The notes: generated from the letters alone by a model not told the origin. Counted from the stretch's first letter, positions 26,402 to 45,803 are shown. The stretch: DNA of 64,000 nucleotides from Candidatus Liptonbacteria bacterium (GCA_016867315.1 VGJV01000001.1:130649-194648), one strand, 5' to 3'. Numbers and translations are program-made.

Positions 26402-27109
26402 ATGGAATATCTTTATAATACATTCTTATATCACCCTTTCCTTAATGCGCTGGTGCTTCTTTATAACACCGTAGCATTTCAGGATTTGGGAATCGCAATT
26501 ATTTTTTTAACTATTCTTATTCGGGTCGTTCTTTTTCCTCTTTTCCAGAAAAGCGTTCGTCATCAGGCAGTGATGCAACGCCTGCAGCCTGAAATCAAGA
26601 AAATTCAGGTTAAATATCCCAAGGATCGTGAGCAGCAGGCTAAGGAAATGCTTGCGCTCTATAAATCACACCAACTGAATCCTTTTTCAGGGTTCTTCCT
26701 TCTTCTTATTCAACTGCCTGTGCTTATCGCTTTATATCAGGTTTTTGTCAGTATTTCTGACCCGCAAACTTTAGCGCATGGAATATATCCTTTTGTGCAA
26801 ATTCCTGCGGAGTTGAAAGCCACCTTCCTCGGCTTGATTAATTTGAAGGCCCAGAGTATCTTCATGGTGGGTTTAGCGGCTTTTGCCCAATATTTACAAG
26901 GCCGCGCGGCGCTTCCTCCTCATGCGCCGGGGGACTCTTTAAGTGACGCGGAGCGAATGGGAAGGAATATGGTGTATATTGCTCCCATTCTTACTCTTCT
27001 TATTTTCTGGAGTTTTCCTGCGGCGGTCAGCTTGTATTGGTTGGTGAGTTCGATGGTGTCTATTGGACAACAGGTTATCGTGAACCGAGAACTTCGTATA
27101 AAGCAATGA
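26402..27109 (+). CDS. yidC: membrane protein insertase YidC (short, Gram-positive/Oxa1-like form)
   Basis: Multi-TM protein of the YidC/Oxa1 pattern in the conserved rpmH-rnpA-yidC-jag order. Confidence 0.8.
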   Translation: MEYLYNTFLYHPFLNALVLLYNTVAFQDLGIAIIFLTILIRVVLFPLFQKSVRHQAVMQRLQPEIKKIQVKYPKDREQQAKEMLALYKSHQLNPFSGFFLLLIQLPVLIALYQVFVSISDPQTLAHGIYPFVQIPAELKATFLGLINLKAQSIFMVGLAAFAQYLQGRAALPPHAPGDSLSDAERMGRNMVYIAPILTLLIFWSFPAAVSLYWLVSSMVSIGQQVIVNRELRIKQ

Positions 27110-27543
27110 ATTTCGAAACTTTCGTACAACAAATTTTGGAACGCATGGGTTTTCGAGATTTTCGCGTGGAAATCAAAGAGGATAATCGCGGAGAGATCTT
27201 TATTTATGAAAACCAGACTTTGGTCAAGGAATTTTTGCCGGTTTTGGTGATGAGTGTGAACCACCTCGTGCAGCTTGTGGCGAGGAAACAGGAGGTCCCC
27301 GCAATAGTTTTCGATGTGAATAATTATCGTCAGGAAAGAGAAAATTTGATTGCGGAGCTCGCTAAGGCAGCAGCGAAGAAAGTGCACGCCACAAAGTCCG
27401 CAGTGGCTCTGCCGGCCATGAACTCCTATGAGCGGCGGATAGTACATACTGCGCTCGCCGTGCATCCCGAGGTGGTGACCGAAAGCATAGGAGAGGGGAA
27501 AGATAGATACGTGATAGTGAAGCCTATTCCAGAAAATAAGTAG
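27106..27543 (+). CDS. jag: Jag/KhpB RNA-binding protein (KH plus R3H)
   Basis: Starts at MNFETF (internal to track ORF 27037..27543); R3H-like C-terminus RRIVHTALA; conserved position after yidC. Confidence 0.7.
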   Translation: MNFETFVQQILERMGFRDFRVEIKEDNRGEIFIYENQTLVKEFLPVLVMSVNHLVQLVARKQEVPAIVFDVNNYRQERENLIAELAKAAAKKVHATKSAVALPAMNSYERRIVHTALAVHPEVVTESIGEGKDRYVIVKPIPENK

Positions 27544-27679: not shown

Positions 27680-28870
27680 CTACTTCAGCGGAATTGAGTA
27701 GAGTCTGTTGTCGTGCCGGTTTTTGAAATACAGAGTGGAGTTCGAGAAATACAGCCGGGTGCCGTCTAGAGGAGAGTCGGGGGTGGGAAGAATTTGAGTA
27801 GTTCCATCTGCAAGATTAATTTTGTACAGTTTGTCGGAGGTTAGCACCGCCCCTTTGAAGTATGAGTCTGGAAGCATCGCGGTTTTCCAGTCGAGTGAAT
27901 CGTTTGGTACTGCACATACGAGGGTCCGGAGAGTAGTGGTGGCAGTGGGACGCAAGTTACTCATCGCGCATTTTTCCGGGAGCGTAAGAAAAGAAAGTTC
28001 TTCTTCTATTTCACCTTTCAAGGAGAGAAGGAAGAGAGAGCCATTCTTTCCGAACTTATCTACTGTGAACGCTAATCCTTGGGTGACGCTTCCCTTCCCC
28101 CAGTTCATAGTGAGTCCATATTGATCCAGGGCAAATTGCGACAGAAGGCGGGTTTTTATATCAAATGCCCACGCGGAGCTAGGGACGAGGCCGCTCGGAC
28201 GTTCCCAAAGTAAAATTTGGTTAGGAGAGGGCCAGGTGAGAATGAGATTTTTGAGGCGGCTCTTAAAAAGTTCTTGCGGTTTCGCGCGAGGATCGGCCAC
28301 ATCAATTGTGCCCAGAGTGAGTACGCCCCCTTTTTCCGCCAGGTAGGCAATGCGAGTATCCGTGGGAGACCAGGCGGCATCGAGGATTTGCAAAGGAAGA
28401 GACTGCCACGTTTTGGTTCTTATATCAAAGAGGCCTGCTTCGAACCCCGTTTCTCCTCCTCCAAAAAGGGTAAGTAGCCTTAGGCTATCGGGAGCAAAGG
28501 TAGACTTGCGGAGATTGGAAATGGGAGTAGGGCTCAGGGTACTCACTCCTCCTACGCGGACCTCTACGATTTTTCCATCTGGTTCGAGTGCAATTATTCC
28601 CCCATCGGGTTTTACCGCAAAGTCCCATACGGGGTTTGTATAGAGAAGCTTCACCGGCCCGGTTTGCGGGGGAGGGAGAACGGGCGAGATGGCGGGAGTG
28701 GTAGGAGTGGTGCTCGCTGGAGTCGTTCGCGACGCGGGGGCTAGTGGTAGGTCGGTTCCCGGAGCGGGCTCGGGAAGAGGGGTCGGACTTTCATATCGGA
28801 AGTAGAAAAACGCTCCGATGATAAGACCGAGTACTACCAAAAAAATGAGGAGGTACAGAAGGCGTTTCAT
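27680..28870 (-). CDS. membrane-anchored Pro/Thr-rich protein with a TolB/PD40-like beta-propeller domain; last gene of the T4SS-like operon
   Basis: N-terminal TM, a PT-rich linker, then repeated WSPDG/IAY-like propeller motifs (AWSPTDTRIAYLAEKGG). Confidence 0.35.
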   Translation of the reverse strand: MKRLLYLLIFLVVLGLIIGAFFYFRYESPTPLPEPAPGTDLPLAPASRTTPASTTPTTPAISPVLPPPQTGPVKLLYTNPVWDFAVKPDGGIIALEPDGKIVEVRVGGVSTLSPTPISNLRKSTFAPDSLRLLTLFGGGETGFEAGLFDIRTKTWQSLPLQILDAAWSPTDTRIAYLAEKGGVLTLGTIDVADPRAKPQELFKSRLKNLILTWPSPNQILLWERPSGLVPSSAWAFDIKTRLLSQFALDQYGLTMNWGKGSVTQGLAFTVDKFGKNGSLFLLSLKGEIEEELSFLTLPEKCAMSNLRPTATTTLRTLVCAVPNDSLDWKTAMLPDSYFKGAVLTSDKLYKINLADGTTQILPTPDSPLDGTRLYFSNSTLYFKNRHDNRLYSIPLK

Positions 28871-28872
28871 CG

Positions 28873-29952
28873 TTAGGGCTTAAAATCTTTGCAGGTTAAA
28901 TTCTTCTTGGCGCATGATTCTTTGATTTTACTTATTGCGGCAGAGGCAGCCTCTCTCATCGCTTGGGCTTTTGGAGGGTCATTTTTGTCGAGATCTCGCG
29001 CGCGAGTTTCGGCGCTATTTGAAATCTGTTGCATGATTTTGTTTACATCCGAGGCTACTTTAGTAGTGTTCGGCAATTGTGCCCCGGCAGCGCCTGCTCC
29101 TGCGCCCGCTCTCGCGGCGGCTTGGGCCATTTCAATCGCACTTTGTTTCAGGCGCGCTTCCATGCCGTTGGCCGTAACTTCGGCATCGAAGTTGACGTTC
29201 GCCTTAAATCTTTCAAATAGGGCCGCAGCTGCGGCTTCCTGATCTTTTTTATCGAGGAATTCTTTTATACGCGAGTCGTATATTCTGTTTAGAGCCTCTT
29301 TTTGAACTTCCGTGGGGGCTCCTTCTTTGGCAAGGAGCTTGGCTTTTTCAGTAAAAAAATCGGTAGCGGAGTTCGTGTGCAGGTTTGCGGCCTCTTTTTC
29401 TAGTTTTAAAGCTTCGGAGGTTTTACCTTCGAGTCTTAGCTTGGCAGCCTGGGTTTCTAAGTCGTGTATCTCTTGAGTATTTGCTGCCGCTCTTTTTCTC
29501 GCCGCCTCGAACACTTCGTGATCTTTGTTATATTCCTGAAAGGTAGTTGAAGGGTCTATTGTATCTCGGATTCCTTCGAGGCCTTTAATAAGGAACGAAG
29601 GGCCTTGCGGATTTTTGGCGAGGATTTGGGGATTTACGAGATTCAGAATAATTCCTGCCCCTAATAGTAGTACGAGACCCAGGAGTGCTTGGGTGATTCG
29701 ATCCTTTCCCTCACTCTTTTTTTCGGGGTTCGCGGCGCCCAGAATGTAGAGGATGCTTCCGTAGACGATTGCACCGAATGCGAGGAGCCCTCCTAAGAGA
29801 AGCGCGAATTGGTAGGCATTACCTAGAATTCCCTCCGGGCTGCCGTAGGTGGGATTTGTGCCCGGAATATTCGGGTTGATCTCGGCAGCGGATGCCCCGG
29901 GACTTATGAGAAGAATTCCCAATACACCGAGGCTAAGAAAAAGTTTCTTCAT
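28873..29952 (-). CDS. VirB2/TrbC-like pilin domain (signal peptide plus two hydrophobic helices) fused to a roughly 250-aa Ala/Lys/Glu-rich coiled-coil extension
   Basis: Signal peptide …GASAA, then FALLLGGLLAFGAIVYGSILYILGA - short loop - ITQALLGLVLLLGAGIILNLV. Confidence 0.3.
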   Translation of the reverse strand: MKKLFLSLGVLGILLISPGASAAEINPNIPGTNPTYGSPEGILGNAYQFALLLGGLLAFGAIVYGSILYILGAANPEKKSEGKDRITQALLGLVLLLGAGIILNLVNPQILAKNPQGPSFLIKGLEGIRDTIDPSTTFQEYNKDHEVFEAARKRAAANTQEIHDLETQAAKLRLEGKTSEALKLEKEAANLHTNSATDFFTEKAKLLAKEGAPTEVQKEALNRIYDSRIKEFLDKKDQEAAAAALFERFKANVNFDAEVTANGMEARLKQSAIEMAQAAARAGAGAGAAGAQLPNTTKVASDVNKIMQQISNSAETRARDLDKNDPPKAQAMREAASAAISKIKESCAKKNLTCKDFKP

Positions 29953-30608
29953 GGGATGATGAGCGTGTTCGCCTTTTTGGCTGCTTCTATTTCGGAGAAA
30001 GGGTTGTAGATCGAGAGCGTGACGTTCAGAGCAGCACCTGCGGGGACGGTTTTAATCGTGAGTACGTCAGGTTCGCCCGAAGCCGCGGCTTTTTCGCCAT
30101 TCACTATCCAATCGAAAGAGAGAATTTCGGCGAAATCAACGTTGAAAAAAAACGGAAGGCCTTTTAGCGCTAAAGGAGGGCGAAGTGGGGTGCTTGGGGT
30201 TTGCATTACGGCTTCCGGAAATACAACCGGGATGGTAATTCCCTTAATAACTCCTTCTTTCAGCGTCGGAATTTCTACTCGGAGAGAGATTGGACTGAAC
30301 TTGAGAGGAGGGGTTCGGAAGAACGTGGAGTGTATGCCGGTTCCTCCACTTACAAAGTTATTGTCCACATACCAATATATGGTTTCTTTGGAGAGATCTA
30401 TAAGACGGCCATTTTGAAGTGCCTCTACCGACGCTTCGATGCGGGACTCGGCAGTAGGAAGAGGTTTTCCTAGATAGCCAGCGGGAGTAAAGGTAGAGGC
30501 CCGCCAGCTTATTATGACCTGAGGGGCGGATTGAGCGTGAAGAGGAAGGGTGGTGGCCAACCCCCCCAGAATAAGAAGCGCGCTATATGCGAGAATGGCT
30601 TTAGGCAT
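29949..30608 (-). CDS. secreted hypothetical protein (signal peptide)
   Basis: N-terminal signal sequence …TTLPLHAQSAPQ; no family recognised. Confidence 0.35.
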   Translation of the reverse strand: MPKAILAYSALLILGGLATTLPLHAQSAPQVIISWRASTFTPAGYLGKPLPTAESRIEASVEALQNGRLIDLSKETIYWYVDNNFVSGGTGIHSTFFRTPPLKFSPISLRVEIPTLKEGVIKGITIPVVFPEAVMQTPSTPLRPPLALKGLPFFFNVDFAEILSFDWIVNGEKAAASGEPDVLTIKTVPAGAALNVTLSIYNPFSEIEAAKKANTLIIP

Positions 30609-30767
30609 GTTCCCCTAATTATATCCGCTCTATATATTTCTCGCTTGAGTAGATTTCCACACCTCTTATCCTATAACCCCTGAAATTCACTCATTCTTCC
30701 CTGCAGGCTTACGGGCAGAATGAATGATTTCAAGGGTTCGGCATTATGCCGTGAGTGGCAGTTTACT

Positions 30768-31433
30768 TTAGTCATCTTTCGAACGGGGCTTTTCCGGTTC
30801 AGGCATTTTCGTCATGACTTCTTGGAGTTTTTCGAGGGGGTCTTTTTCGGCGCCCATTGCTTCATCCGAAACAGTACTTCCTGATTTTGCTGGGCTTTGT
30901 GCGAAGTTTTCACCTAATTCTTCCGTGCCCCCGGCTCTCACCGCGGTTTTTTCGGTTTTCTCTTGGTGCACCCCCGATCGTTCGACTCCGTGGGTGGCCG
31001 TTTGTTCGGCACGGACTGCAGCGGCGCCCGCTCGTACTTTTTGCATCATGGTGCCCCCGCCGCGCATCGCGGTGGAGACTCCCACTGTCGTATTTACCGC
31101 TTTTGCTGCAAAAGAATTTGGATTATGGTCGGCATATACCGTCCAAATCCAACCCGCGGTGAGTAATGGAGCTGCCCCCAACCACGGAAAGAGTTCTAGA
31201 AGCCAGGTGATGAGTTGGCGGATGGGAGGAATTCCCTTCAGGAAAAGATACACAAAAATAGTGGAGGCAAGGGTATCTAATATCCAAAAATCATCAAGAC
31301 CCACGAAAATAATTCCTATTTCCACCGCGTCTATCGCGGCGAATACAAAACCGATAAGGAGTGTTTCGGTTACGGAAATTTTCGGTTCGGGTTCGCTTCT
31401 TTCCCCATTTTCTGCTTCCAACTCTTCCGCCAT
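30768..31433 (-). CDS. hypothetical polytopic membrane protein (3-4 TM) with a hydrophilic C-terminus
   Basis: Hydrophobic helices; sits immediately downstream of VirB4. Confidence 0.35.
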   Translation of the reverse strand: MAEELEAENGERSEPEPKISVTETLLIGFVFAAIDAVEIGIIFVGLDDFWILDTLASTIFVYLFLKGIPPIRQLITWLLELFPWLGAAPLLTAGWIWTVYADHNPNSFAAKAVNTTVGVSTAMRGGGTMMQKVRAGAAAVRAEQTATHGVERSGVHQEKTEKTAVRAGGTEELGENFAQSPAKSGSTVSDEAMGAEKDPLEKLQEVMTKMPEPEKPRSKDD

Positions 31434-31436
31434 AAA

Positions 31437-33158
31437 TTATTTTTCTTTCAAAAGCTGTTCGGGGTTCGTGGTAACCAATTGGTCTTCGAAGTAGGAGGCT
31501 ATAATTTGGATGGCTACATGTTTTTTGCCTGCAAAAAACAACCCAGTCCCCACTTCTGCCCCGAGAAGCAGGCCTTTTTCGGCTTCCGTGAGATCGAAGG
31601 CTTTCGCTACTACGTCGATAGTGGCGGGGGCTTGTTTCAAAAGGAGCTGCAGGGAGGAGTTCGTAATAATAGGGCGGCCATAGGGAGAACGCAGGAAATC
31701 TTCCACGTCTTGGGTGATAGTAGAGACTCCCAGATAGTATTTTCGAGCTCGTTTTACTAAGCCGAAGAGGAAAGTGGCCGAGTCTTCGTTTTTCATCATG
31801 AGCCAGGCTTCATCGATGATGAGGATTCGACGCTTGAGCTTGGCCCTAATCAGATTCCAAATAAAGTTCAAAATCACAAACATCGCAATCGGGCGCAGTT
31901 CTTCTTCGAGGTCCCGAATGGAAAACACTATGAGGCGATTTCCAATGTCGATGTTCGTTTGTTTGTCGACAAAGCCCGCGAAGGAGCCTTTCGTGTATTT
32001 ATAGAGGCGTTCCGCCATTGCCCGTCCCCCTTCGAGATTTCGGAGCACGGTCTCCAAGTCTTCAAGGAGAGGGGGTTCTTTGCCGCTAAAATCTTCTCCC
32101 GCAACAATCTCACGCGAAGCGTATGTTTCGGTGATCGCTCGGTCGAGCAGCGAATCTTCTTCGGGGGTGAGTTTCCCAAGCATAAGCTTCACTAAGCTTG
32201 CGAGGTTTACAATATGCGATCGCAAAATGTCCGAAGCGGACTCCCCTTCCGGAATGATGGGGATATCGAAAGGATTAATGTGTTCTTCGGAAGAAAGAGA
32301 AATATTAAAGAAGCTCCCTCCTAAGGCTCGGGCTAAACGTTCATATTCGTTTTCCGGGTCGATCACAATTACCTCGGTGCCTACCATGAGCGAGCGGATG
32401 ATCTCGAGTTTGGTGGAGTAGGATTTTCCCGAGCCGGATTTGGCAAATACCACCTGGTTGGCGTTTTCAAGTGAGAAGCGATCGAATACGACCAGGCTGT
32501 TATTATGACGATTGATCCCGTACATTATTCCCTCGTTCGAGGTTAGATCTTCCGAAACAAAGGGGAAGAATGAGGAGATCGGACTCGAATTCATGGGAGT
32601 GTGTACATCGAGTTTATCGTTGCCGAATGGGAATACTGAGAGCAGGCCCTCGAGCTGTTCGAAGAGGGCAGGTTTGATGTAGACAAGTTTCGCTTCCATG
32701 AGGGAGACTATCTGGCTTTCCAGTTTCGCCAATTCTTCCGGGGTGTCGGCATAAATCGCAATATACACGGAAGTATTAAAAAGTTTTTCCTCGGATTGCT
32801 GGAGGGTGTCCCGAAGATTCTCCACATCCTTAAAAGCGGTTTCGAGGAGCGGATCTCTCACCAATCCCTTTTCTTCCGAGTCGGCGATTTGAGATTCGAG
32901 TTGCGCGGCTTTTTTACGCAGGTTTTTCAACGCATCGCCAGTATTGATCGGCGTAATGAAAATCGATACATCAAGCAAATTCGGAAGATTTACTAAGGGC
33001 TCAAACCAGCCGGTCGAAAGATACCGGGGGTAGGAGAGCACGAAAAAGGTTTTGGCGAGTTTGTTCCCGATTTTCAAATAGTTCGGAGTGACCTCCACTC
33101 CGGCAGGAGCGATGATTTTCGCAATGTCTGTGGGGTTGTTCTGCTTCGTTTCTTCCAT
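31437..33158 (-). CDS. virB4: VirB4/TraE/CagE-family type IV secretion ATPase (C-terminal portion carrying the ATPase domain)
   Basis: Walker A AKSGSGKSYSTK, VIDPENEY…INPFD, Walker B ILIIDEAW and the C-terminal TITQ motif, all VirB4 hallmarks. Confidence 0.75.
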   Translation of the reverse strand: MEETKQNNPTDIAKIIAPAGVEVTPNYLKIGNKLAKTFFVLSYPRYLSTGWFEPLVNLPNLLDVSIFITPINTGDALKNLRKKAAQLESQIADSEEKGLVRDPLLETAFKDVENLRDTLQQSEEKLFNTSVYIAIYADTPEELAKLESQIVSLMEAKLVYIKPALFEQLEGLLSVFPFGNDKLDVHTPMNSSPISSFFPFVSEDLTSNEGIMYGINRHNNSLVVFDRFSLENANQVVFAKSGSGKSYSTKLEIIRSLMVGTEVIVIDPENEYERLARALGGSFFNISLSSEEHINPFDIPIIPEGESASDILRSHIVNLASLVKLMLGKLTPEEDSLLDRAITETYASREIVAGEDFSGKEPPLLEDLETVLRNLEGGRAMAERLYKYTKGSFAGFVDKQTNIDIGNRLIVFSIRDLEEELRPIAMFVILNFIWNLIRAKLKRRILIIDEAWLMMKNEDSATFLFGLVKRARKYYLGVSTITQDVEDFLRSPYGRPIITNSSLQLLLKQAPATIDVVAKAFDLTEAEKGLLLGAEVGTGLFFAGKKHVAIQIIASYFEDQLVTTNPEQLLKEK

Positions 33159-33160
33159 GA

Positions 33161-33832
33161 TTATGTTTTAGCTTCGCTGCCCGGAATGGTGAGATCTTCT
33201 CTCTCGACGGATTCAGGATTATAAAAGTTATAGAGCATTTCCGCGAGTTCTTTATTTCCTAATGCCACGGCTTCCAAACCGATCGCGTTTAAACCTTCGA
33301 TAACCTGAGCGGTGCGTTGATTAAGTTGCTCCAAGGATTCTTTGAAATCCCCTTCTTTTTCTTCTGCGGCCGCCGCCGCCGCATTCTCGTTTTGTTTTAG
33401 AAATGGAATAAAACGCAGGATACTCCGTGTCGAGGGGAGGGCTACGGTTACCCAGGGGATCACCACAAAAAAAGTTTTTTCCATTATAGCGTTTTTTTCC
33501 ACAAAACCCCGGATGAATTCCCGGTATTCTGAGTTCTGGTTTCGTAATAGTGGGGAGGGTTCGGTTTTTTCAAATCCTCCCAACTTGTCGAGGTACTTTG
33601 AGATGTTAATTCTTCGGGAGTGAATAATAACTTGGAGCGGGAAATCAAGGGTGTTCAGAAAATTTTGATACCCGGAAGTGATGGTATTTTGTTCCGTTTC
33701 CGAACGCAGCGCGAAATTCATCCCGTTTACCATAAGGATTTGTCGTAGGCTGCCGTCGCGGAGTACCAGTACTCCATCGCGGACTTCTTTTACAGCCACT
33801 AAGTCTTGAGCGTTCGCGAATTGTTTTGGCAT
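33161..33832 (-). CDS. VirB4 N-terminal domain encoded as a separate ORF (split VirB4)
   Basis: DGVLVLRDGSLRQILMVNGMNFALRSETEQ…FLNTLDFPLQVIIHSRR matches the Gram-positive VirB4 N-terminal pattern. It ends TAA-tc-ATG, 2 nt before the ATPase ORF. Confidence 0.45.
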   Translation of the reverse strand: MPKQFANAQDLVAVKEVRDGVLVLRDGSLRQILMVNGMNFALRSETEQNTITSGYQNFLNTLDFPLQVIIHSRRINISKYLDKLGGFEKTEPSPLLRNQNSEYREFIRGFVEKNAIMEKTFFVVIPWVTVALPSTRSILRFIPFLKQNENAAAAAAEEKEGDFKESLEQLNQRTAQVIEGLNAIGLEAVALGNKELAEMLYNFYNPESVEREDLTIPGSEAKT

Positions 33833-33837
33833 AGAAC

Positions 33838-33867
33838 AGCTTTAAGGTTTAAGCTTTGAGCTTTAAG
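33838..33867 (+). repeat. 30-bp heptamer element, copy 1 (AGCTTTA AGGTTTA AGCTTTG AGCTTTA AG)
   Basis: Read directly; intergenic. Confidence 0.7.
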
Positions 33868-33879
33868 TGGAAGACCTTC

Positions 33880-34245
33880 TTATTGTACCTTTTTTTGCTC
33901 AAGTTTCTCCTTCATCCCGTAAAGCATTTTCTGGACTTCATCGAGGAGAGATTCGGCTCGTGCGTAGTTCAGTTTAGAATATAGGCGTTTCGCAATTATG
34001 AGTTGAGTTTCTAATTCTGCAGAAGACGCGTCGGCTATTCTTAGGAAGTGGAGGTATTCCGGAATGTCTTTTCGGCGAGAGCCTTCAGCAATGTTTGATG
34101 GTATGGAAATTGTAGCTCTCCGCATTTGAATGCTAAGACCAAACATCTCTTCTTTTGGGAATTGTGCAGTGAGTTCGTAAACTTCAATTACAAGCTCAAT
34201 CGATCTTTGCCATACAATAAGTTCTTTGTAGGATTTTACATACAT
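33880..34245 (-). CDS. four-helix-bundle protein (23S rRNA intervening-sequence protein family, TIGR02436-like)
   Basis: MYVKSYKELIVWQRSIELVIEVYELTAQFPKEE…SIPSNIAEG…LHFLRIADASSAELETQLIIA is characteristic of the family. Confidence 0.7.
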   Translation of the reverse strand: MYVKSYKELIVWQRSIELVIEVYELTAQFPKEEMFGLSIQMRRATISIPSNIAEGSRRKDIPEYLHFLRIADASSAELETQLIIAKRLYSKLNYARAESLLDEVQKMLYGMKEKLEQKKVQ

Positions 34246-34251
34246 ATTGGA

Positions 34252-34281
34252 CTCAAAGCTTAAAGCTGGAAGCTAAAAGCT
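34252..34281 (-). repeat. 30-bp heptamer element, copy 2, in inverted orientation (plus strand reads CTCAAAGCTTAAAGCTGGAAGCTAAAAGCT)
   Basis: Read directly; together with copy 1 it brackets the four-helix-bundle gene. Confidence 0.7.
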
Positions 34282-34287
34282 ATGTAG

Positions 34288-34794
34288 CTATCTGTAGTCT
34301 ACCCGGCGGGCAGCGTGCCGTTCGCCGGTTTTTTTCCGAAACACTGCAAATTGATCCTCGGCCTGGTTCAAGAAGGTTCCCGGGGAGATTTTCCCGGTTC
34401 CGGTTTGCAGCTTTTGCCAGGTTTTTCGCAGGGCCAATCCGGAGAGCACTTCTTCGAGGGAGGCGTTCGAAGTGGGAGAGGTGGGCTCTAGTACGGGAGC
34501 AGGAGCAGTTTTCTTATCCTGGGGTTGCCATACGTACGTTTGAGGTTTCCAGAAGTAGAAGAATGCAGCACGAGCTACGGTAGGAAGAGAACGCCCCCCG
34601 ATCTTTACAAACGCAAGCGCGATACCTATGGCAACAAGGGGCAAAGAGACCAAGAGCCACAGCCATAGTTCCACGAGAAGATATAATATGAGAGATATTC
34701 CTCCCGTAATTCCTATATAGATGAATTGTTTGAGGCTCAAAGGCCCCACAATTTTATCTTCGGTTTCGATGAATTGAGGAACTTGGAATTGCAT
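34288..34794 (-). CDS. PrgI-family (VirB3-like) small membrane protein
   Basis: MQFQVPQFIETEDKIVGPLSLKQFIYIG followed by two TM helices, as in Gram-positive T4SS PrgI proteins. Confidence 0.5.
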   Translation of the reverse strand: MQFQVPQFIETEDKIVGPLSLKQFIYIGITGGISLILYLLVELWLWLLVSLPLVAIGIALAFVKIGGRSLPTVARAAFFYFWKPQTYVWQPQDKKTAPAPVLEPTSPTSNASLEEVLSGLALRKTWQKLQTGTGKISPGTFLNQAEDQFAVFRKKTGERHAARRVDYR

Positions 34795-34801
34795 CAGATT
34801 T

Positions 34802-34831
34802 AGCTTTAAGCGTTAAGCTTTTAGCTTTAAG
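34802..34831 (+). repeat. 30-bp heptamer element, copy 3 (AGCTTTA AGCGTTA AGCTTTT AGCTTTA AG)
   Basis: Read directly; intergenic. Confidence 0.7.
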
Positions 34832-34841
34832 TAAGAATATA

Positions 34842-36062
34842 TCATTTTGGCGGAACGGGAGGCTCGTCGAACGAGTCAAGGTCGAGTATATCATCTCCTG
34901 GCTTCTCCGGCGTGGAGGGAGCTTCCGGGGCGGGAGGAGGCGGGATTTCGGACAGAGAGACAGTTTCCAAAACCTCTTTTTTCTTTCCAAAAAAGCGGGA
35001 GAAAAATCCGGGTTTACTCGGGGAGATGGGCTCCGGAGCAGGGGGAGTTTCTGTTGGAAGTGGCGGCGGAATTTCGGAATCGTTCGAAAAGTTTGAGAAA
35101 TTCAGCACGTCATTCTTGGAAGTTTCGGGATGGGGCATAGGCGGAGGTTCGTCTGCAGCCGGTTCTTTTATGGCTGAGAGAGGGGTTTCTGGAACAGCGG
35201 GTTCTAAGGGGGTGCGAAGATCGGCGTAGTGCACGATTCGCTCTTCGTTTTCGGTTTTACGTTGTTCTGCAGTTTCCTTATTCTCCTCCGAGCCAATCTC
35301 AATATTGGCTTGCGGAACTGGTATAGCCTCGGATTCGGAAGGTCCAAATTCTTCTGGCTTAATGTTTAGAGAAAAATCCTCCACGCGTGGAAGTGAAGGC
35401 GCCCCCGGTTCTTCGTGAAGGATGAATGGAGTGGCATCGGTAGAGGAGGAAGGCACATTTGGGGCAGGAGGGGTTTCAGTGGGCGCTGGAGGCGGAGTGA
35501 ATGACATATCGAACGAGGGGGGAGTGATATCTTGCGGAGGGGTGAAAGAAGGCGAAGGAGTGATTTCGGGCGAGGATTCTAATGAATCGAGCGTTACCGG
35601 GGCTTCCTTAAAGAAGGAATTTTCACCACTTTCCGGCTTTAACTTTTCGAGGGTTTGCTCAAAGGCATCCGGAGTTTGAATATCTTCCATTTGGGTGGGA
35701 GCGGCGTGTTCTTCGGGATGTGTGCCAGGAGGGGCATAGACTGCATCTAATTCATCGCGAAGCGAGCCGAATATTTTGGAGTTCAGTGTAACTGCGATTT
35801 TGTTCGCAATTTCGGGGTGTATGCCCGTCGAGAGTTTTACTTCGTTCGCCACATCCTCGGGATGAAGGAAGCCTAAAAATACCCACGAAGCGATACGCGC
35901 CACTTCTCGGTACTTCTCTTCGGAGAGGTGCTCGGCCTCACAAACTTGAGAGACGAGCTCTCCGTTTTTTTCGGAGGCCAAGGCTTCGCGCAGGTCCGGC
36001 GGGAGCATATCCCAGCGCTGCCAGACTAGATCGTTTGCAATTGTGGTGGGTTGAGGGTTCAT
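34842..36062 (-). CDS. hypothetical protein with a globular N-terminal domain and a long Pro/Glu-rich low-complexity C-terminus
   Basis: ORF within the operon; no TM segment. Confidence 0.35.
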   Translation of the reverse strand: MNPQPTTIANDLVWQRWDMLPPDLREALASEKNGELVSQVCEAEHLSEEKYREVARIASWVFLGFLHPEDVANEVKLSTGIHPEIANKIAVTLNSKIFGSLRDELDAVYAPPGTHPEEHAAPTQMEDIQTPDAFEQTLEKLKPESGENSFFKEAPVTLDSLESSPEITPSPSFTPPQDITPPSFDMSFTPPPAPTETPPAPNVPSSSTDATPFILHEEPGAPSLPRVEDFSLNIKPEEFGPSESEAIPVPQANIEIGSEENKETAEQRKTENEERIVHYADLRTPLEPAVPETPLSAIKEPAADEPPPMPHPETSKNDVLNFSNFSNDSEIPPPLPTETPPAPEPISPSKPGFFSRFFGKKKEVLETVSLSEIPPPPAPEAPSTPEKPGDDILDLDSFDEPPVPPK

Positions 36063-36065
36063 GGG

Positions 36066-38630
36066 TTAGTGATTGGGGTGGTCTCCTCCGCCGCCGCTAC
36101 TGCTGCCGAAAGGACTTTCTACCTTTGGCGCGTGTTCTTCTTTGTGTGCGTGTTCGCCATGGTCTTCGCCTTCATGCACATGCGCCTCATGTTCTTGGCT
36201 CGTCATGTGGCTGGCGAGACTTTTGTTAAGATTGTCGAGGCCTTTTTGCAATTTCTTTTTCAAATCCCCCGCGGAGGCATTGATTCCTTTGTTGTAGGTA
36301 GTTTTCATCAATTTTTCGAAACTCTGTAGTTGTTTCGCATTCAACTTCCCAATAATTTGAGGGACTAGCTGTTGATTGGTGTGTGCCATTTTCTCGGCAA
36401 GTACTTCAGCCATTATTTTAATACTCTCTTTGCTCAACCCGAATGCAGGTTTGTCTCCAAATATTTCTTTATATTGCACTTTGTCGCCTTTCTTTAGTTC
36501 CTCTACTTTTTTCTGTATCTCTTTTTGTTTTTCTAGCGCGTTGACTGTTCTTCCTGTAGGCTTGCCAGTTTCGGGGTCGATTTCGGCCACCTCCGCCTTT
36601 TCTCGCGCAGCTTGAGTCGCTTGTTTTACATATTTTTCAAACTCGGAAGGCTCATTGGCTTTTTGGAGAGCACTCTCTCTCGCATTTTCGGCTTTCTCAG
36701 GGCTATCACCGTGCGCGATTGCTTCTTCGTAGGCGACTTGACCTTTTTTATACCGGGCTACTGCTATTGCTTTGTCGCGTGCTTCCTCAGCTTCCTTGTC
36801 GTTGTCTCCGTGCATTTTAGCTTCTTCATAAGCCTTTTTACCGGCTTCCGATACTTCGGTGTCGCGGGAAAGGCCTTTTCTTTCCGCCCACATTTCCGCT
36901 TCCTCCCCGGCAATTTTTTCAGCTTCGGTCATTGCTTCTAGATAGGGTTTGGACAAACCTGCCCAATCCGTGGCTTTTTGCGCATTCTCATACGCTTCTT
37001 CCTTCCCAAATCGCTTAAAGGCGGCTTTTTGATCCGGAGCAATATATTTCGCATCTACCTTATCGAGCCAACCTTCCTTTGTGGCTTGTTCAATAAGCGC
37101 AATGCGGCGAGCCATGTTCGCTCCCGGGATCAAATTCGCTTTTTGCTGATTGGTCATTCCGGCGGTTTCTTTCTTCACAATTTCCGCTTCTTCTTTGGCG
37201 AGCTTGCCGGTTATCCTTACTTCCCCGGCTTGAATAGCCTCTCCTATTTTTTGACCTGCGAATTGTACGCCTGATAATTTAGCAGCTTTTCCTAGCCCTC
37301 TCATAAATCGATTACTGCTGTTCTGACCATACCCGCCGGACATCATTTTATTGGCTATATTTGGTACCCAGCCCTTAGTTTGGAGTACTTTTCCGCCGAG
37401 TTGCTTAGAGCGGCGGATACCCCAGTTCCCTACTGCTTTTACCGCCCACTTCGTGGCGTGGCCTCCGGCAATCCCGAATTTTTCAGCGACAATGATTCCT
37501 CCGATCGAGAGTCCTACAAGCACTGCGGCTTGGAGGAAAGTGCCAATGGTGTTTGAGGCGCCGCCCAACACGAAGTTCGAAAGCCCCGTAAGGAAGCTCG
37601 TATCATCTGCGGAGGTAAGCCCCAATCCTTTTAAAGCGGCGTATGGATTCGTGCCTCCTTCTTGAGACATTTTTTCCGAGGTGATGATCACAAGCCACAA
37701 GAAAAAAAGCGAGACAGGGGCGAAGAAGGTCCATTTCCAAAATTTATCCCACCATGAGGACCACCACTTCGAGGTATTAGGGAAAACCCACAGGAGCCAG
37801 ACAAGAGGCATGACGATGAGGAGCATCCCTATATAGATGTACCGGACTACAAGCATCCAGAAAAATACCGCGATTGTAATGCAGATCACGATAAGGATGA
37901 CCGCGGCGAATATGAGACTTATAAAAGGGGCAAAAATGGCTCCGAGAGACTGGCCAGCTGCAGCTGCCCCTCCGACTTTTTGCAAGTCTTCCATTTCAGT
38001 GGTGTAGTCTGCTTGAGAAAGAGTGGGATTGAGTATCGCTCGTTGAGGATTGAAAGCGCCTCCGAAGGCTTTAGCAAATTCGTGAAAACCTCGCGTTCCC
38101 CCTCCGCCTCCTGGAAGAGCGGTCAAAAATACTTTCGAGAATTGATCGGAGAAGTTTAGAATCCCCCCTGTAATGACCAAGCTGAAGTTAACCAGAAGAG
38201 CTGCGACAATGAGTTTCACGAGGAGCTTTTTCATTCCGTACGACTCGTAGCGGATGATTGTGGCGATAGCGATGATAATGATGCCAAGTACGAACCCCAG
38301 GTTTGCCACTTGGAGCGAAACCTCGAAGCCTTTTTGTACCGCGGTGGTATTGATGATATTTGTATTCAGCTCGAGCATGATGCCTATCCCGATGACCATG
38401 AGAGAGAGGAAAAATCCCACTACGGAGGTCACAAGATATGCAATCACAAAGGCCACCCAGCCTATGGCTCCTCCCAGGACGCTGCCAATTCCAAAGAGGC
38501 CGGTGAGCCAGCCCCCAAATTGGGCATGAGTGGGTAAAGGCAACAGGAAGGCGGTAGATATTCCGATACTTGCCAAGGCGATTATCGGTTTTCGCCAGAG
38601 TCGATTCACTATAGAAAAAAGGAAGTTCAT
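36066..38630 (-). CDS. VirB6/TrbL-like polytopic membrane protein with a charged coiled-coil C-terminal domain and a His-rich tail
   Basis: Roughly 420 aa with many TM helices, then an E/K/A-rich region with internal repeats (AYEEAKMHGDNDKEAEEARDKAIAVA / AYEEAIAHGDSPEKAENARESALQKA), ending HEAHVHEGEDHGEHAHKEEHAPK. Confidence 0.4.
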   Translation of the reverse strand: MNFLFSIVNRLWRKPIIALASIGISTAFLLPLPTHAQFGGWLTGLFGIGSVLGGAIGWVAFVIAYLVTSVVGFFLSLMVIGIGIMLELNTNIINTTAVQKGFEVSLQVANLGFVLGIIIIAIATIIRYESYGMKKLLVKLIVAALLVNFSLVITGGILNFSDQFSKVFLTALPGGGGGTRGFHEFAKAFGGAFNPQRAILNPTLSQADYTTEMEDLQKVGGAAAAGQSLGAIFAPFISLIFAAVILIVICITIAVFFWMLVVRYIYIGMLLIVMPLVWLLWVFPNTSKWWSSWWDKFWKWTFFAPVSLFFLWLVIITSEKMSQEGGTNPYAALKGLGLTSADDTSFLTGLSNFVLGGASNTIGTFLQAAVLVGLSIGGIIVAEKFGIAGGHATKWAVKAVGNWGIRRSKQLGGKVLQTKGWVPNIANKMMSGGYGQNSSNRFMRGLGKAAKLSGVQFAGQKIGEAIQAGEVRITGKLAKEEAEIVKKETAGMTNQQKANLIPGANMARRIALIEQATKEGWLDKVDAKYIAPDQKAAFKRFGKEEAYENAQKATDWAGLSKPYLEAMTEAEKIAGEEAEMWAERKGLSRDTEVSEAGKKAYEEAKMHGDNDKEAEEARDKAIAVARYKKGQVAYEEAIAHGDSPEKAENARESALQKANEPSEFEKYVKQATQAAREKAEVAEIDPETGKPTGRTVNALEKQKEIQKKVEELKKGDKVQYKEIFGDKPAFGLSKESIKIMAEVLAEKMAHTNQQLVPQIIGKLNAKQLQSFEKLMKTTYNKGINASAGDLKKKLQKGLDNLNKSLASHMTSQEHEAHVHEGEDHGEHAHKEEHAPKVESPFGSSSGGGGDHPNH

Positions 38631-41600
38631 TATTGTTGGACAGTCAGGGTGCGCACTCGCGGGGTGGCGGCTACGCCGTCCACTTCTAAGGTGTAGGTAA
38701 GCCGATAGGTGCCGGGAGGAAGGGTGTACAGAGAAGAGGTTGGATTTAGAGGTTTAATGGTGTTCCGTGCGGAATCTTCTATTTTCACCTGGATTTTGGA
38801 TTGATCAGCTGGCTGGGGGTTGTTGTAATACGGGTAGGCTTTGGCGGTTACCCATTGAGGTAAAAGCGGATTGATATTAGTGGCCTGTTTTTTCGTGAAC
38901 GAGGCGGGCACTTTTGAGACATCAATTACCGGGCGGAGATGGCGGAAGAGTTCCACTTCACGAAATACTATTCTTTGAGCTTCAAATCTCACCTTCGTGG
39001 TTTTTACGGTGTTTGCTTTTATGTTCCCTACATTCGTCCAGTTTCGAGGATCGTTTCGAGAGCCAGGGCCTCGATATGTTTTTTTCATCGCTGTTTCTTG
39101 GGAAAGGTTCACTTTCTTATCAGCTTCGCTGTTGTCTGTAAGGTCTATTTCATAGCGCGTGTTTTCATCTCCTTCGAAAAGTACGAGAAATGGACCCGCT
39201 TGGGTGCCGGTTTGAGCTCCTACAATTGAATAGGGTTTTAATGTAAATTTTTCTTCGCTTAAGTACTTTACATATTTCACCTCATTGAGGTATTCGGGGG
39301 CAAAGAGAGTCACCTCCCACCAGCCAGGATTATTATCCCCTCCATAATTATCGGAATAGGAGTCAAGGGTTCCATCTACCGCCTCCGAAGCGAACCGGTC
39401 TTTGTAGGTGTGGTTTTGGCCGGTGGTTGCGTCATACAGATTTACTTTGGGGTTCTGCGCCTCCAAATCTTCCAAGCCGGAGAGGAGGATATCTCCTTCT
39501 TCTGGGAAGTATATGTCATCGGGTACCGTTTCGGCTCCGGAAGTTTTGCGAGATTCGCTTACAATTCCAGCTACTCCAAATCTCACGCTTTGAAGGGTTT
39601 CAAGTTGTTTTCGCGCATTGGTACAAGCTTGGCTTTTTACCGTGCATTGGACTGTCACCTGATTTCGCAGCTTACATTCTTGTAAGTTTTGACCTGAAAA
39701 ATTCTTACAATTTCTTTCATCGAGCAATGCCTCCATCTGCTCACGAGCGGTGTCGCACGTGCTGCCGCTCTTTCTGCCGGTGTCGCATTCTGTAACTTCT
39801 TTTTGAATATTACATTCTTGAAGGGCTTGCCCAGTGAGGGCGGAGCAATCCGTGACTGTCACGGTCCCTCCCCTTCCGTAGCTTACTTGCGAGAGTCCCG
39901 AGCCGGTGGGTTGCCCATTAATCGCCGAAACTCCCGAGGTAATGAGGCGAGTGAGCGCCGCGTCTGCGGCCACCGCAATCAGACCTGCAATGTCATTCGC
40001 ATTGATAATGGTGTCCGCTGGTAGGGAAAGGCTTTTGGTGAGTGTGTCGCCCAACACTTTTCCGGGAGTGCGCACGATGGGTTGTTCTCCACCTGGACAG
40101 CCATCCGCCAGGTTAGAGCCGTCTGGCATCGGGCCGTACGGGCGAGGATTACCGTCTTTATCCTGCCCCGGTGGTTTGCCGGTCGAGGGACAGATTTCCG
40201 TGCTTAGGAATCCGCTTCCGGCGAGGGCTTTATTTTTGGCGGCTTCGGCGGCGGCAATTGCTTCTCTCGTTACCCGATCGTGACCCTCAATCATGATGCC
40301 GAAGAAGTTCCCCGTGGGTTGGAAGGTGACTCCGTATTGGATCCAGCCGCCGGCGTGGAAGTTGCTATAAAAATTTTTTATATTTGATACCACTTGATTC
40401 AGCGTGCAGCCGGTGTAGACGGGGACGGTGACTCCTGGGGCTTGAATGGAAATACGCAAAAATGCTCCTAGCTCCGAGGGATAGCAAAGTTCCGGAATCA
40501 GTTTTTCTATTACCGCCCCCGCAGCGTTATTGAAGGCATTCGATAAGAATCCTTTCCAGTCTGTCACGAATTGAGGTTTTCCACCGCCGTTGATCCAGCT
40601 CACGATTTGTTGCTGGAGCATCGCAATAAGCTGATTTTTGAGTTCTTGCAGAAACACTTTCTGGGCCAAATCCCACAAGCGTTGGAGCCAATTTTTCTTA
40701 TCATCAGCTACTTCATTCCCTGTGAGTTTTGCAGCAATCTTATTCAGCGTAGCGTCTAATACTGGTACGCGGCTTCCCTGGGCAAACGCTTGTTTAATTC
40801 CTAAAAGGCGTTCTAGCAAAGAAAGCTGGGTTTGAGGAGAGAGAGAAGAAAGATCGAGGAGTTCGGTTTCCCTCGCGAGATTTTGCATGTCTCTGAAGAG
40901 TACCCCCTCCGCCTGTTTTTCTACCTCTTTAATTATTGCGATCGACTTTAAGGGATCGTCTGGTTCTCCCAAGGCTACGTCCACCATTTTTTTCTGGTTC
41001 GAGACGAGCGTGAGTAACTTCTTATGAAATTCCAAAAGAGGTTGAGGCACACTCGCTTTCAAAAGAGCTTGCGTGGCGCTTCTATATACAGTTACCCCGG
41101 CGTAAATTGCTTCGAGACTGGCGGATTTTTTTTGCAGGTTCTCAAAATCATTGCTCAGAATAGTACGATTGAGGACGTCTTCAGTCGTCGCAATATATTG
41201 GGCGAAATCTTGTTCGTTGGGATTTGAAATCAGAGAAAGTTCTTTCTCGTTCACACTTTCCGGAAATTCAGGAAGTTCTTTTAAGAGCGCAGGAGCATCT
41301 ACTAGATTTTGTGTAATAAGTGTTTCGAGGGTGGTGCGGTTGGGAGAGGTAAGGCCATTCGCAGGACCATTGAGGGTGCCTACCGCATCATTTACTCGAA
41401 TTACTTCCCCTGCCAAAATGTTTCCCAGTCGGCGAGTGAGGTTGGTCGAGCTCGCATGTCCGGAGTTAAGAGAGGCGGAGGGAGAAAGTGATTGGGTTTT
41501 CGAGGTAAACGCGTTTTCGGGAGCGGCGGATTTGGAGGTGGAGAGAGAGGGAGTGGCTTCAGAGCGTAAGTAATCCAAGAAGCTCGAGGTGCCGAAGGAG

Positions 41601-41662
41601 AAGAGAGTTGCTAACACAGAGAAGAAGAGGAAGCCGGAAATAAGTTTTTTGATATCGGGCAT
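38630..41662 (-). CDS. large (1010 aa) secreted/surface protein with a Cys-rich central region; first gene of the T4SS-like operon
   Basis: N-terminal hydrophobic signal/anchor and multiple CxnC clusters (…CSALTGQALQECNIQKEVTECDTGRKSGSTCD…). Confidence 0.4.
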   Translation of the reverse strand: MPDIKKLISGFLFFSVLATLFSFGTSSFLDYLRSEATPSLSTSKSAAPENAFTSKTQSLSPSASLNSGHASSTNLTRRLGNILAGEVIRVNDAVGTLNGPANGLTSPNRTTLETLITQNLVDAPALLKELPEFPESVNEKELSLISNPNEQDFAQYIATTEDVLNRTILSNDFENLQKKSASLEAIYAGVTVYRSATQALLKASVPQPLLEFHKKLLTLVSNQKKMVDVALGEPDDPLKSIAIIKEVEKQAEGVLFRDMQNLARETELLDLSSLSPQTQLSLLERLLGIKQAFAQGSRVPVLDATLNKIAAKLTGNEVADDKKNWLQRLWDLAQKVFLQELKNQLIAMLQQQIVSWINGGGKPQFVTDWKGFLSNAFNNAAGAVIEKLIPELCYPSELGAFLRISIQAPGVTVPVYTGCTLNQVVSNIKNFYSNFHAGGWIQYGVTFQPTGNFFGIMIEGHDRVTREAIAAAEAAKNKALAGSGFLSTEICPSTGKPPGQDKDGNPRPYGPMPDGSNLADGCPGGEQPIVRTPGKVLGDTLTKSLSLPADTIINANDIAGLIAVAADAALTRLITSGVSAINGQPTGSGLSQVSYGRGGTVTVTDCSALTGQALQECNIQKEVTECDTGRKSGSTCDTAREQMEALLDERNCKNFSGQNLQECKLRNQVTVQCTVKSQACTNARKQLETLQSVRFGVAGIVSESRKTSGAETVPDDIYFPEEGDILLSGLEDLEAQNPKVNLYDATTGQNHTYKDRFASEAVDGTLDSYSDNYGGDNNPGWWEVTLFAPEYLNEVKYVKYLSEEKFTLKPYSIVGAQTGTQAGPFLVLFEGDENTRYEIDLTDNSEADKKVNLSQETAMKKTYRGPGSRNDPRNWTNVGNIKANTVKTTKVRFEAQRIVFREVELFRHLRPVIDVSKVPASFTKKQATNINPLLPQWVTAKAYPYYNNPQPADQSKIQVKIEDSARNTIKPLNPTSSLYTLPPGTYRLTYTLEVDGVAATPRVRTLTVQQ

Positions 41663-41712
41663 GTGGATAACCGGCGCATTCCTTGTGGATAGAATACGCC
41701 ACCTCTATTATA
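41662..41712 (-). promoter_or_regulatory. leader/promoter of the T4SS-like operon, containing a perfect DnaA box (41662-41670), a second 8/9 box (TGTGGATAG, 41684-41692) and a TATAAT -10 hexamer (41707-41712)
   Basis: On the coding strand this reads …TATAAT…CTATCCACA…TTATCCACATG with the start codon at the end; read directly. Confidence 0.35.
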
Positions 41713-41766
41713 CCCGCCGCGAAACTTACAATTATGCAGTTTTATGCACAGCCCCGTCCTTTTTCT

Positions 41767-42564
41767 CTAGAAAAAGGAGGTGAGGGAGTGAATTTGGGAA
41801 AGAGAGAGGGTTTGGGGGCGGACCGAGGGGTCGATCCCCTTCTCTTTCAGGATTTTGGCGAGTTTCTCTTTGGGGAGCTGGAGGGTGGCGGCAAGATTAT
41901 TGAGCACTGTTTTTCGAGGTTGGCTGAATAATGATTGTACTGTAGCGAAATATTTTTTTTCTTTTCCTTGTTTCACGATGGGGAAAATTTGAATGACTGC
42001 GGATTCTACTTTAGGGGGAGGAGAAAAGGCTCCAGGGGGAATTTGGAGAATAATTTTACCTTTTCCCCAAAATCCCACACTTGCCGCCAATTTATTCATA
42101 TGCGGAGGTTTGGCGAGGAGTCGCTCCGCTACTTCTTTTTGAATCAAAAGAACCGTTAGCTGGGGAGAGGGCTCGCGTTCTCCGATAAGACGTAAGAGAA
42201 ACCCTGTAAGATAGTAAGGAATGTTTCCTACTATTTTATAGGGCAGCTTTGAGCTTTGAGCTTTGAGCTTTGAGATCAGAGAGGGAAGCACTTCTCGAAC
42301 ATCACCCTCTACAATTTCTAGATTTCTGGCTTTGGCAAATTTTATCCGAAGCTCTTCTGCGAGTCGCGCGTCTTTTTCTATCGTTACGATTTTTGGGGGG
42401 CTCGCTAAAAGCTTATCGCTTAACGCTAAAAGCTCTTTCGTGAGTTCCCCGTGTCCTCCCCCTATTTCAATTACCGTTTCTCCTTTTTGGGGAGCAAGGG
42501 CCGCCGTAATTTTAAAAAGCGCGCTTTTATCTTTTAGAAAGTGTTGACCAAGCTTCTGTCCCAT
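41767..42564 (-). CDS. rsmA: 16S rRNA (adenine1518/1519-N6)-dimethyltransferase RsmA/KsgA, carrying two in-frame 10-codon insertions
   Basis: MGQKLGQHFLKDKSALFKI… with the SAM motif VIEIGGGHGELT. The two insertions are the heptamer elements at 42245 and 42405. Confidence 0.85.
   Translation of the reverse strand: MGQKLGQHFLKDKSALFKITAALAPQKGETVIEIGGGHGELTKELLALSDKLLASPPKIVTIEKDARLAEELRIKFAKARNLEIVEGDVREVLPSLISKLKAQSSKLPYKIVGNIPYYLTGFLLRLIGEREPSPQLTVLLIQKEVAERLLAKPPHMNKLAASVGFWGKGKIILQIPPGAFSPPPKVESAVIQIFPIVKQGKEKKYFATVQSLFSQPRKTVLNNLAATLQLPKEKLAKILKEKGIDPSVRPQTLSLSQIHSLTSFF
42245..42274 (+). repeat. 30-bp heptamer element, copy 4 (AGCTTTG x4 plus AG), in-frame inside ksgA (encodes KLKAQSSKLP-region)
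   Basis: Read directly and translated. Confidence 0.7.
42405..42434 (-). repeat. 30-bp heptamer element, copy 5, inverted orientation (CTAAAAGCTTATCGCTTAACGCTAAAAGCT), in-frame inside ksgA (encodes LALSDKLLAS)
   Basis: Read directly and translated. Confidence 0.65.
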
Positions 42565-42632
42565 TTGGGGCTATTATGCCTTGGGAGGGCATTCATGGGA
42601 AGGAAGAACCGTTACGGGTATAATCTCCCTAT

Positions 42633-45586: not shown

Positions 45587-45803
45587 AAAAGTGCCTATAT
45601 TATGAAGAGTTTTTCATATTGCGGCGAGAGGGCCGCTCCAGTATACTATAGGCCAGAGCCTATCCGAAAACCCCCTCCGGCCGCGATACGAGCAAATTTC
45701 TCGGAATTCCAAGGCTTACTGACGATGGCGTACTCGGAGAGTACGGCGAGGAGGTGTAACGCAGGAATTCAGAAAATTTGCTGTATCCCCAAGGGTTGCG
45801 GAC

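Follow-up and report, generated by a model that had tools for sequence, protein, structure and literature searches.

Positions 27680-41662 of a 64,000-nucleotide stretch of DNA from Candidatus Liptonbacteria bacterium (GCA_016867315.1 VGJV01000001.1:130649-194648; the whole stretch is denoted here the window) raise the question of whether the block of genes found there encodes a type IV secretion system (T4SS), and whether that block came into the region by insertion or has always belonged to it. The original prediction described a Gram-positive-style, non-conjugative T4SS-like machine, encoded by an operon inserted between jag and ksgA. The evidence from profiles, modelled structure and synteny agrees with such a machine, as do published descriptions, and we estimate at roughly 80% the probability that the locus is a vertically inherited, origin-proximal T4SS of a patescibacterium of the class Paceibacteria, in which Liptonbacteria are placed by a published dataset (PMC12102498). 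The minus strand carries the eleven closely spaced open reading frames (ORFs) that had been described, with internal junctions of -4 to +159 nt, 7 of 10 being overlapping or no longer than 3 nt. Pfam and NCBIfam name five of the eleven, and four of the operon's proteins have no family assignment, in line with the expectation that many of the partners would be without a family. The VirB2, VirB3, VirB4 and VirB6 core is present and is conserved alongside a set of surface proteins.

The identification of VirB4 had been staked beforehand on a profile match for the protein encoded at 31437-33158. This protein matches the NCBIfam model "VirB4-like conjugal transfer ATPase, CD1110 family" (conju_CD1110) at 394 bits (cut-off, 325; E=1e-117), and also matches Pfam P-loop_TraG, AAA_10 and DUF87. 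All four motifs from which it had been recognized were located, AKSGSGKS at residue 239, INPFD at 294, ILIIDEAW at 445 and TITQ at 480, and both the Walker A and the Walker B motif are intact. The neighboring gene at 33161-33832, separated from the ATPase gene by 2 nt, encodes a TrsD-like protein whose similarity to VirB4 models is confined to their N-terminal ~200 positions (E=5e-9), with an alignment to VirB4_CagE positions 18-195, and which also matches TrsD (5e-6); it has precomputed matches to PF26593 and PF27097. The N-domain and ATPase profiles fall on separate ORFs, as had been predicted for a split VirB4.

To compare the locus with its relatives, we used the VirB4 ATPase to scan GTDB, with one genome for each species, which returned at least 593 relatives, and compared every protein of the window with the best 80 loci by tblastn and blastp. 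The detection counts given below are lower bounds, since several of these loci are incomplete and accessory proteins diverge fast. The best 80 all come from metagenome-assembled genomes of Patescibacteria/Paceibacterota, with 56-80% VirB4 identity, and the VirB4 of the window appears to be of MPF_FATA affinity with patescibacterial relatives, a placement drawn from profile score and similarity and not from a tree. The ATPase was matched in 80/80 loci and the N-terminal domain in 77/80. This domain is a separate ORF in 71 of the 77, usually 1-10 nt away from the ATPase ORF, and the other six loci have a single fused ORF of ~770-794 aa. The split is the normal state among relatives; the fused ORFs confirm that the small protein is a true VirB4 N-terminal domain, and the occurrence of both forms in one class indicates that the gene was split or re-fused within the class.

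Further upstream, the gene at 34288-34794 encodes a small membrane protein that was expected to be PrgI/VirB3-like and matches PrgI above the Pfam cut-off (PF12666, E=6.8e-8). It was matched in 75/80 loci, and the PrgI gene lies directly upstream of VirB4 in 75 of the 80. The 854-aa protein encoded at 36066-38630, matched in 48/80 loci, had been called a VirB6-like polytopic protein. It carries about seven hydrophobic helices in aa 1-400, followed by a long charged helical C-terminal domain. Its family profile gave no matches in PDB, and hhalign of the family against the single PrgH sequence of plasmid pCF10 was uninformative (probability 3%). An AlphaFold2 model of residues 1-470, built with 120 homologues, reached a predicted local distance difference test score (pLDDT) of 78 and a predicted template modelling score (pTM) of 0.70. 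When this model was compared with PDB by Foldseek, the R388 TrwI/VirB6 chains ranked first, with weak E values (0.03-0.15), TM-scores of ~0.4 and probabilities of 0.97-1.00. In the model, the N-terminal 470 aa have the fold of TrwI and DotA, both of which are counted as VirB6-family proteins (PMC12857230), and the order of the 854-aa gene, PrgI and VirB4 is collinear with PrgH-PrgI-PrgJ of pCF10. Given the modelled fold and the gene position upstream of PrgI-VirB4, we accept the protein as a predicted "extended VirB6" with a long charged C-terminal domain, and this model-based structural support for the VirB6 call is new here. Many homologues also carry a precomputed match to PF19590, a putative TrbL-type family, which is given no weight here.

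The pilin gene is located at 28873-29952. The T4SS_pilin domain occupies aa 39-106 of the product (PF18895, E=6.6e-10, above cut-off), which has a signal peptide and two transmembrane helices (aa 50-68 and 88-106), so the VirB2/TrbC-like pilin had been recognized correctly. For the part said to be a coiled-coil, the amino-acid composition and a weak similarity to a designed helical repeat point only to a helix: the C-terminal extension of 250 aa is rich in Ala, Lys and Glu and is probably helical. A pilin was matched in 44/80 loci. Among 50 ORFs of the pilin family, 44 match PF18895 and 6 match PF04956, and their lengths range from 99 to 538 aa, with an extension of anything from none to ~430 residues, which makes the C-terminal extension a variable add-on. 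With a signal peptide and two transmembrane helices, as in VirB2, the pilin should have this extension facing outward. In one relative (L036:12149-12958) the pilin carries a Peptidase_M23 domain at its C-terminus (E=2e-33), a fusion that fits display of envelope-directed activities on the apparatus. Species-variable C-terminal pilin extensions, including the M23 peptidase fusion, are new here.

Genes for conjugation were looked for in two ways, and the predicted absence of a coupling protein and a relaxase held within the 64 kb. Pfam detected no VirD4/TcpA coupling protein and no relaxase among window ORFs of at least 150 aa, and tblastn with PcfC and PcfG of pCF10 gave no match in the window or in the 80 loci. 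When all Prg and Pcf proteins of pCF10 were used as tblastn queries, PrgJ (VirB4) was the sole match, with 27-29% identity. With no relaxase or coupling protein nearby, the machine is apparently not a conjugation apparatus. The window had also been said to lack a cell-wall hydrolase, and this claim failed, as a protein with LysM and Peptidase_M23 domains is encoded at 45602-46951. This peptidoglycan hydrolase gene lies on the plus strand, 4 kb upstream of the operon, and its homologues adjoin ksgA or uvrD in eight related loci. The protein is most like the cell-division type DipM/NlpD/EnvC, and the whole origin region is syntenic anyway, so that its link to the T4SS is unproven.

The operon is flanked on one side by Jag/R3H (27037-27543), YidC, RnpA, DnaA (24403-25761) and DnaN, and on the other by KsgA (41767-42564) followed by a UvrD-like helicase. 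Its location between jag and ksgA had suggested an insertion, namely of a conjugative or mobilisable integrative element gained recently, or of its remnant. The idea draws on the affinity of its VirB4, which is nearest to conjugative MPF_FATA ATPases (conju_CD1110 and, at 27-29% identity, PrgJ), and on the way in which the block interrupts genes that are otherwise housekeeping ones, as observed earlier. The synteny comparison speaks against it. The order uvrD-ksgA-[1010-854-406-PrgI-VirB4N-VirB4C-(221)-219-pilin-396]-jag-yidC-(rnpA)-dnaA-dnaN, in which numbers denote protein lengths in aa and VirB4N and VirB4C the two VirB4 parts, recurs in most of the 80 loci whose flanks extend far enough, in dozens of Paceibacteria species, with the same position and orientation. 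The block has a G+C content of 0.46-0.505, the same as its flanks; there is no integrase, relaxase or type IV coupling protein (T4CP) within the 64 kb, and no tRNA gene adjoins the block. In addition, a published VirB4 tree indicates vertical descent within the class (PMC12102498). The conserved synteny and the unremarkable G+C content indicate that the block belongs ancestrally to the origin region of this class and was not inserted: the position that had been described is correct, and the word "inserted" is not. We rejected the recent insertion of an integrative conjugative element on synteny and composition, and consider it highly improbable.

The 1010-aa protein encoded at 38630-41662 is the first product of the operon; there is an overlap of 1 nt between its gene and that of the VirB6-like protein. 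The 1010-aa protein had been described as secreted and Cys-rich. A single N-terminal hydrophobic segment agrees with a secreted or N-terminally anchored protein; "Cys-rich" is an overstatement for 12 Cys in 1010 aa, all of which fall within aa 393-680, where a Cys-containing helical segment occupies aa 600-690. The protein has no family in Pfam or NCBIfam and was matched in 22/80 loci. Wide conservation is confined to residues ~320-600, which carry the motifs WIxGxGxPxFVT, LCxPF, CTL, DFxxGGW, NNxYG, GFLS..C and TPG. This core defines a family of proteins typically 500-560 aa long: in a full HMMER scan of 1.84 billion cluster representatives (50% clustering), 6,456 had E<=1e-3 and, of these, 4,214 had E<=1e-30, and no core-family member among the matches listed contains a Pfam domain. 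The coupling of this large, unannotated, ~500-aa secreted family to virB6 is new here. The AlphaFold2 model of the core is all-helical and of low confidence (pLDDT 66, pTM 0.32); profile comparison of the core with PDB gave no match, and Foldseek of this low-confidence model returned only noise. The C-terminus is probably discoidin/Ig-like, as suggested by a weak F5_F8_type_C_2 match (E=7e-4) and by close relatives annotated as discoidin or PF00754. On the basis of where its gene lies and of its predicted helicity, we propose that the protein may be a VirB5/IcmX-like partner or an adhesin; it has no sequence match to VirB5 or IcmX by PDB profile, and no fold match to them with the low-confidence model.

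The gene at 27680-28870, the last of the block in 42-46/80 loci, encodes a 396-aa protein with an N-terminal membrane anchor and a Pro/Thr-rich linker. Its predicted TolB-like propeller is supported by the family profile, which matches TolB beta-propellers in PDB (E=7e-10) over positions 121-283, a partial coverage. The protein is without the TolA-binding N-terminal alpha/beta domain, and no tol/pal genes are present in the window. The different N-terminus and the lack of a Tol-Pal context indicate that it carries a TolB-type propeller but is not a TolB orthologue. The 219-aa protein encoded at 29949-30608, matched in 33-34/80 loci, starts with a hydrophobic segment and has a family profile with weak similarity to Ig-like domains in Hoc of phage T4 (E=5.8e-4); it is probably a secreted protein with tandem Ig-like beta-sandwich domains. 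The 221-aa membrane protein (30768-31433), recognized by hydropathy, has hydrophobic helices in aa 19-110 and an acidic, disordered tail, and is poorly conserved (8-9/80 loci by BLAST). The 406-aa protein (34842-36062; 18/80 loci) had rightly been called Pro-rich, with 68 Pro (17%) and no transmembrane segment; only its N-terminal ~110 aa are conserved, and this domain has no PDB profile match.

Between PrgI and the VirB4 N-terminal domain gene lies a cassette (33836-34290) whose ORF, 33880-34245, encodes a four-helix-bundle protein of PF05635 ("23S rRNA IVS protein")/TIGR02436. This gene had been described as inserted, and its presence among relatives is sporadic. Its arms, ~34252-34290 and ~33836-33872, are inverted arrays of heptamer-type repeats, which pair as a closing stem in both the minimum free energy and the centroid RNA fold. 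The window and the 80 loci (~1.4 Mb) contain only 8 copies, found in the window and in L017, L021, L025 (two), L037, L055 and L071. All 8 are located at the 406|PrgI, PrgI|VirB4N or VirB4N|VirB4C junction, and 7 are bracketed by inverted repeats of 17-42 nt, the arm sequences differing between copies. The cassette is a passenger outside the T4SS core. Scanning metagenomes with the four-helix-bundle protein gave 80 further loci (L088-L167). The gene abuts PrgI/VirB4 in 9 of them and lies within ~2.4 kb of PrgI/ksgA in 4 more; the remaining copies are found elsewhere, sometimes several per contig.

Across 82 copies, the 70 nt upstream of the gene contain on average 3.24 TAG, compared with 0.65 in random 70-mers, and the 70 nt downstream contain 2.50 CTA, compared with 0.69. 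The dominant TAG-TAG spacing is 7 nt, which places stop codons in all three frames in 36 of the 82 copies. RNAduplex z-scores of the arms were noisy (-0.2 to -6.5), and the null for inverted-repeat cross-pairing is contaminated by the shared TAG motifs, so the TAG/CTA counts are the cleaner statistic. The PF05635 family was first found in stem-bounded ORFs of rRNA intervening sequences. The cassette resembles these in being a stem-bounded ORF, but it lies inside a protein-coding operon. The repeats could form an RNA stem like that of the intervening sequences, act as a translational insulator or represent the ends of a mobile cassette. It is conceivable, though doubtful, that the cassette is a novel type of small element, either mobile or processed at the RNA level.

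We then compared the locus with known systems. A survey of 3,035 Patescibacteria genomes found that most VirB4s form one clade nested in MPF_FATA, with genes for TrsD-like, PrgI/VirB3, VirB6 and VirB2-like pilin proteins near virB4; relaxases are almost absent, T4CP homologues occur in most genomes, usually far from virB4, and in Paceibacteria and Microgenomatia the T4SS locus lies near dnaA, dnaN, rnpA, ksgA and rpmH (PMC12102498). In Southlakia epibionticum the homologous cluster, SEML1_0006-0019, is essential for epibiotic growth by transposon sequencing (PMC10633639), whereas the distant T4CP homologue of this species is not essential (PMC12102498). The locus of the window shares with the published systems (PMC12102498, PMC10633639) a VirB4 of MPF_FATA affinity with a separate TrsD-like N-domain, the PrgI/VirB3, VirB6 and VirB2-like pilin genes near virB4, the lack of a relaxase and of an adjacent T4CP (here within 64 kb), and the position beside dnaA/dnaN/rnpA/ksgA. 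It differs from them in having a single pilin gene with a 250-aa extension instead of a pilin array and, compared with Southlakia, in that virB4 is not directly followed by a gene for a peptidase or lysozyme. At the sequence level it displays every feature of the Patescibacteria T4SS described in 2023-2025, and is a further example of it, not a discovery. The TolB-like propeller, tandem Ig-like, ~500-aa family and Pro-rich proteins are not described in these papers, and the text of PMC12102498 makes no mention of TolB, propeller, discoidin or helix bundle.

The conjugation system of pCF10 from Enterococcus faecalis, the prototype of MPF_FATA, has the same order of VirB6 (PrgH), VirB3 (PrgI) and VirB4 (PrgJ) and a VirB4 of the same CD1110 family. 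Unlike pCF10, the locus of the window has no detectable PcfC, PcfG, PrgK hydrolase, PrgL (VirB8-like) or PrgB adhesin; its VirB4 is split, its VirB6 has 854 aa compared with 266 aa for PrgH, and it encodes a VirB2-type pilin, which Gram-positive conjugation systems are without. TrwI/TrwJ of R388 and DotA/IcmX of Legionella share with it the VirB6 fold modelled for the N-terminal 470 aa of the 854-aa protein, and the window also has, directly upstream, a gene for a secreted, predicted helical protein that overlaps the VirB6-like gene; here, however, the apparatus belongs to a monoderm without an outer-membrane core complex, and neither the PDB profile search nor the low-confidence model linked the 1010-aa protein to VirB5 or IcmX. 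ComB of Helicobacter pylori, which takes up DNA, and Ptl of Bordetella, which serves in periplasmic export, share VirB2, VirB3, VirB4 and VirB6 with the locus and resemble it in having a T4SS core without a relaxase or an adjacent coupling protein, but these are diderm MPF_T-type systems with VirB7, VirB9 and VirB10. ComB has been cited as a precedent for an uptake role in Patescibacteria (PMC11665869).

By analogy with R388 and Dot/Icm, a VirB4 hexamer assembled from the two polypeptides would dock on VirB3 and VirB6 at the cytoplasmic membrane, extract pilin from the membrane and polymerise it on a VirB6 platform. The resulting pilus or tube would, again by analogy, cross the monoderm envelope. 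More speculatively, the secreted 1010-aa protein may take the VirB5/IcmX position on VirB6, and the propeller, Ig-like and discoidin-bearing proteins may serve in anchoring to or crossing the wall, or in binding the host surface. The machine is most likely a host-contact pilus or conduit that would support an epibiotic lifestyle. Several points weigh against these assignments. VirB8-, VirB1- and VirB5-like components were not found by sequence inside the operon, and a T4CP may be encoded beyond the 64 kb. The VirB5 analogy, finally, comes from gene position and predicted helicity, with a pTM of 0.32 and no fold match.

As to what would pass through such a conduit, reviews treat the function as unknown and offer two speculations, delivery of effectors and uptake of molecules from the host (PMC11665869, PMC12857230). 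A cultivated relative takes up host RNA and has tubular structures, possibly T4SS pili, that seem to penetrate the host (bioRxiv 10.64898/2026.06.21.733656). We tentatively favor T4CP-independent uptake of host macromolecules, at somewhat less than even odds. Export of effectors or toxins into or onto the host bacterium, with the help of a distant T4CP or independently of one as in Ptl and Brucella VirB, is possible but less probable. It is the commonest role of non-conjugative T4SSs and has been speculated upon in the literature (PMC11665869, PMC10633639); most Patescibacteria genomes do encode T4CP homologues far from virB4 (PMC12102498), and the M23-pilin fusion of L036 points to a capacity of the apparatus to display activities aimed at the envelope of the host. 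However, neither the locus nor the window contains a candidate effector, chaperone or T4CP, and the T4CP homologue of Southlakia is dispensable although its T4SS is not. An organelle restricted to adhesion, without translocation, would account for the pilin, the surface-type domains (Ig-like, discoidin-like and beta-propeller) and the lack of substrate-recruiting components. It would leave unexplained why a full VirB6/DotA-like channel subunit has been kept and conserved together with VirB3 and VirB4, and these organisms possess a separate type IV pilus system, represented in the window by a PilB-like ATPase at 17459-19138; we therefore regard an adhesive pilus alone as improbable.

The uptake conduit that we favor could be taken one step further. 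It is conceivable, though doubtful, that Paceibacteria added to the VirB2/3/4/6 core a conserved, previously undescribed surface module, made of the ~500-aa family (translationally coupled to VirB6 and in the VirB5/IcmX position), the Ig-like and propeller proteins and pilins with exchangeable C-terminal cargo, helical in the window and an M23 peptidase in L036, to form a host-specific, wall-breaching uptake conduit. Patescibacteria are ultra-small, make up a large share of bacterial diversity and depend on host cells, and the T4SS is essential in the one genetically tractable species. The locus does not change this general picture; it offers a complete and clear instance from Paceibacteria, in which VirB6 has structural support. 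Its conserved accessory families are candidates for host-contact and wall-crossing parts, one of them having thousands of unannotated members.

The cumulative GC-skew minimum of the window is at ~22-24 kb, adjoining dnaA and dnaN. Positions 27680-45586, comprising the T4SS operon, ksgA and uvrD, are on the minus strand to the right of this minimum, indicating that an 18-kb origin-adjacent block is oriented head-on to replication. Relatives keep this head-on orientation, an unusual one for genes believed to be essential or strongly expressed. A promoter/terminator scan of the operon showed no enrichment compared with shuffled sequences, and the boundaries of the operon are accordingly defined by gene spacing only. 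On the other side of dnaN, also near the origin, the minus strand at 17459-19138 encodes an ATPase of the PilB/GspE type (T2SSE, E=2e-119). Contigs identical to this one are present in several JGI and Logan metagenome assemblies, and at NCBI the identical 1010-aa and 854-aa proteins are the hypothetical proteins FJY98_00960 and FJY98_00955 of a Candidatus Liptonbacteria metagenome-assembled genome. An Rfam scan of the window detected three tRNAs and nothing else. At 58213-58284, on the plus strand, ARAGORN identified a tRNA-Ile whose anticodon, TAT, is uncommon among bacteria, where AUA is usually read by a lysidine-modified CAU tRNA.

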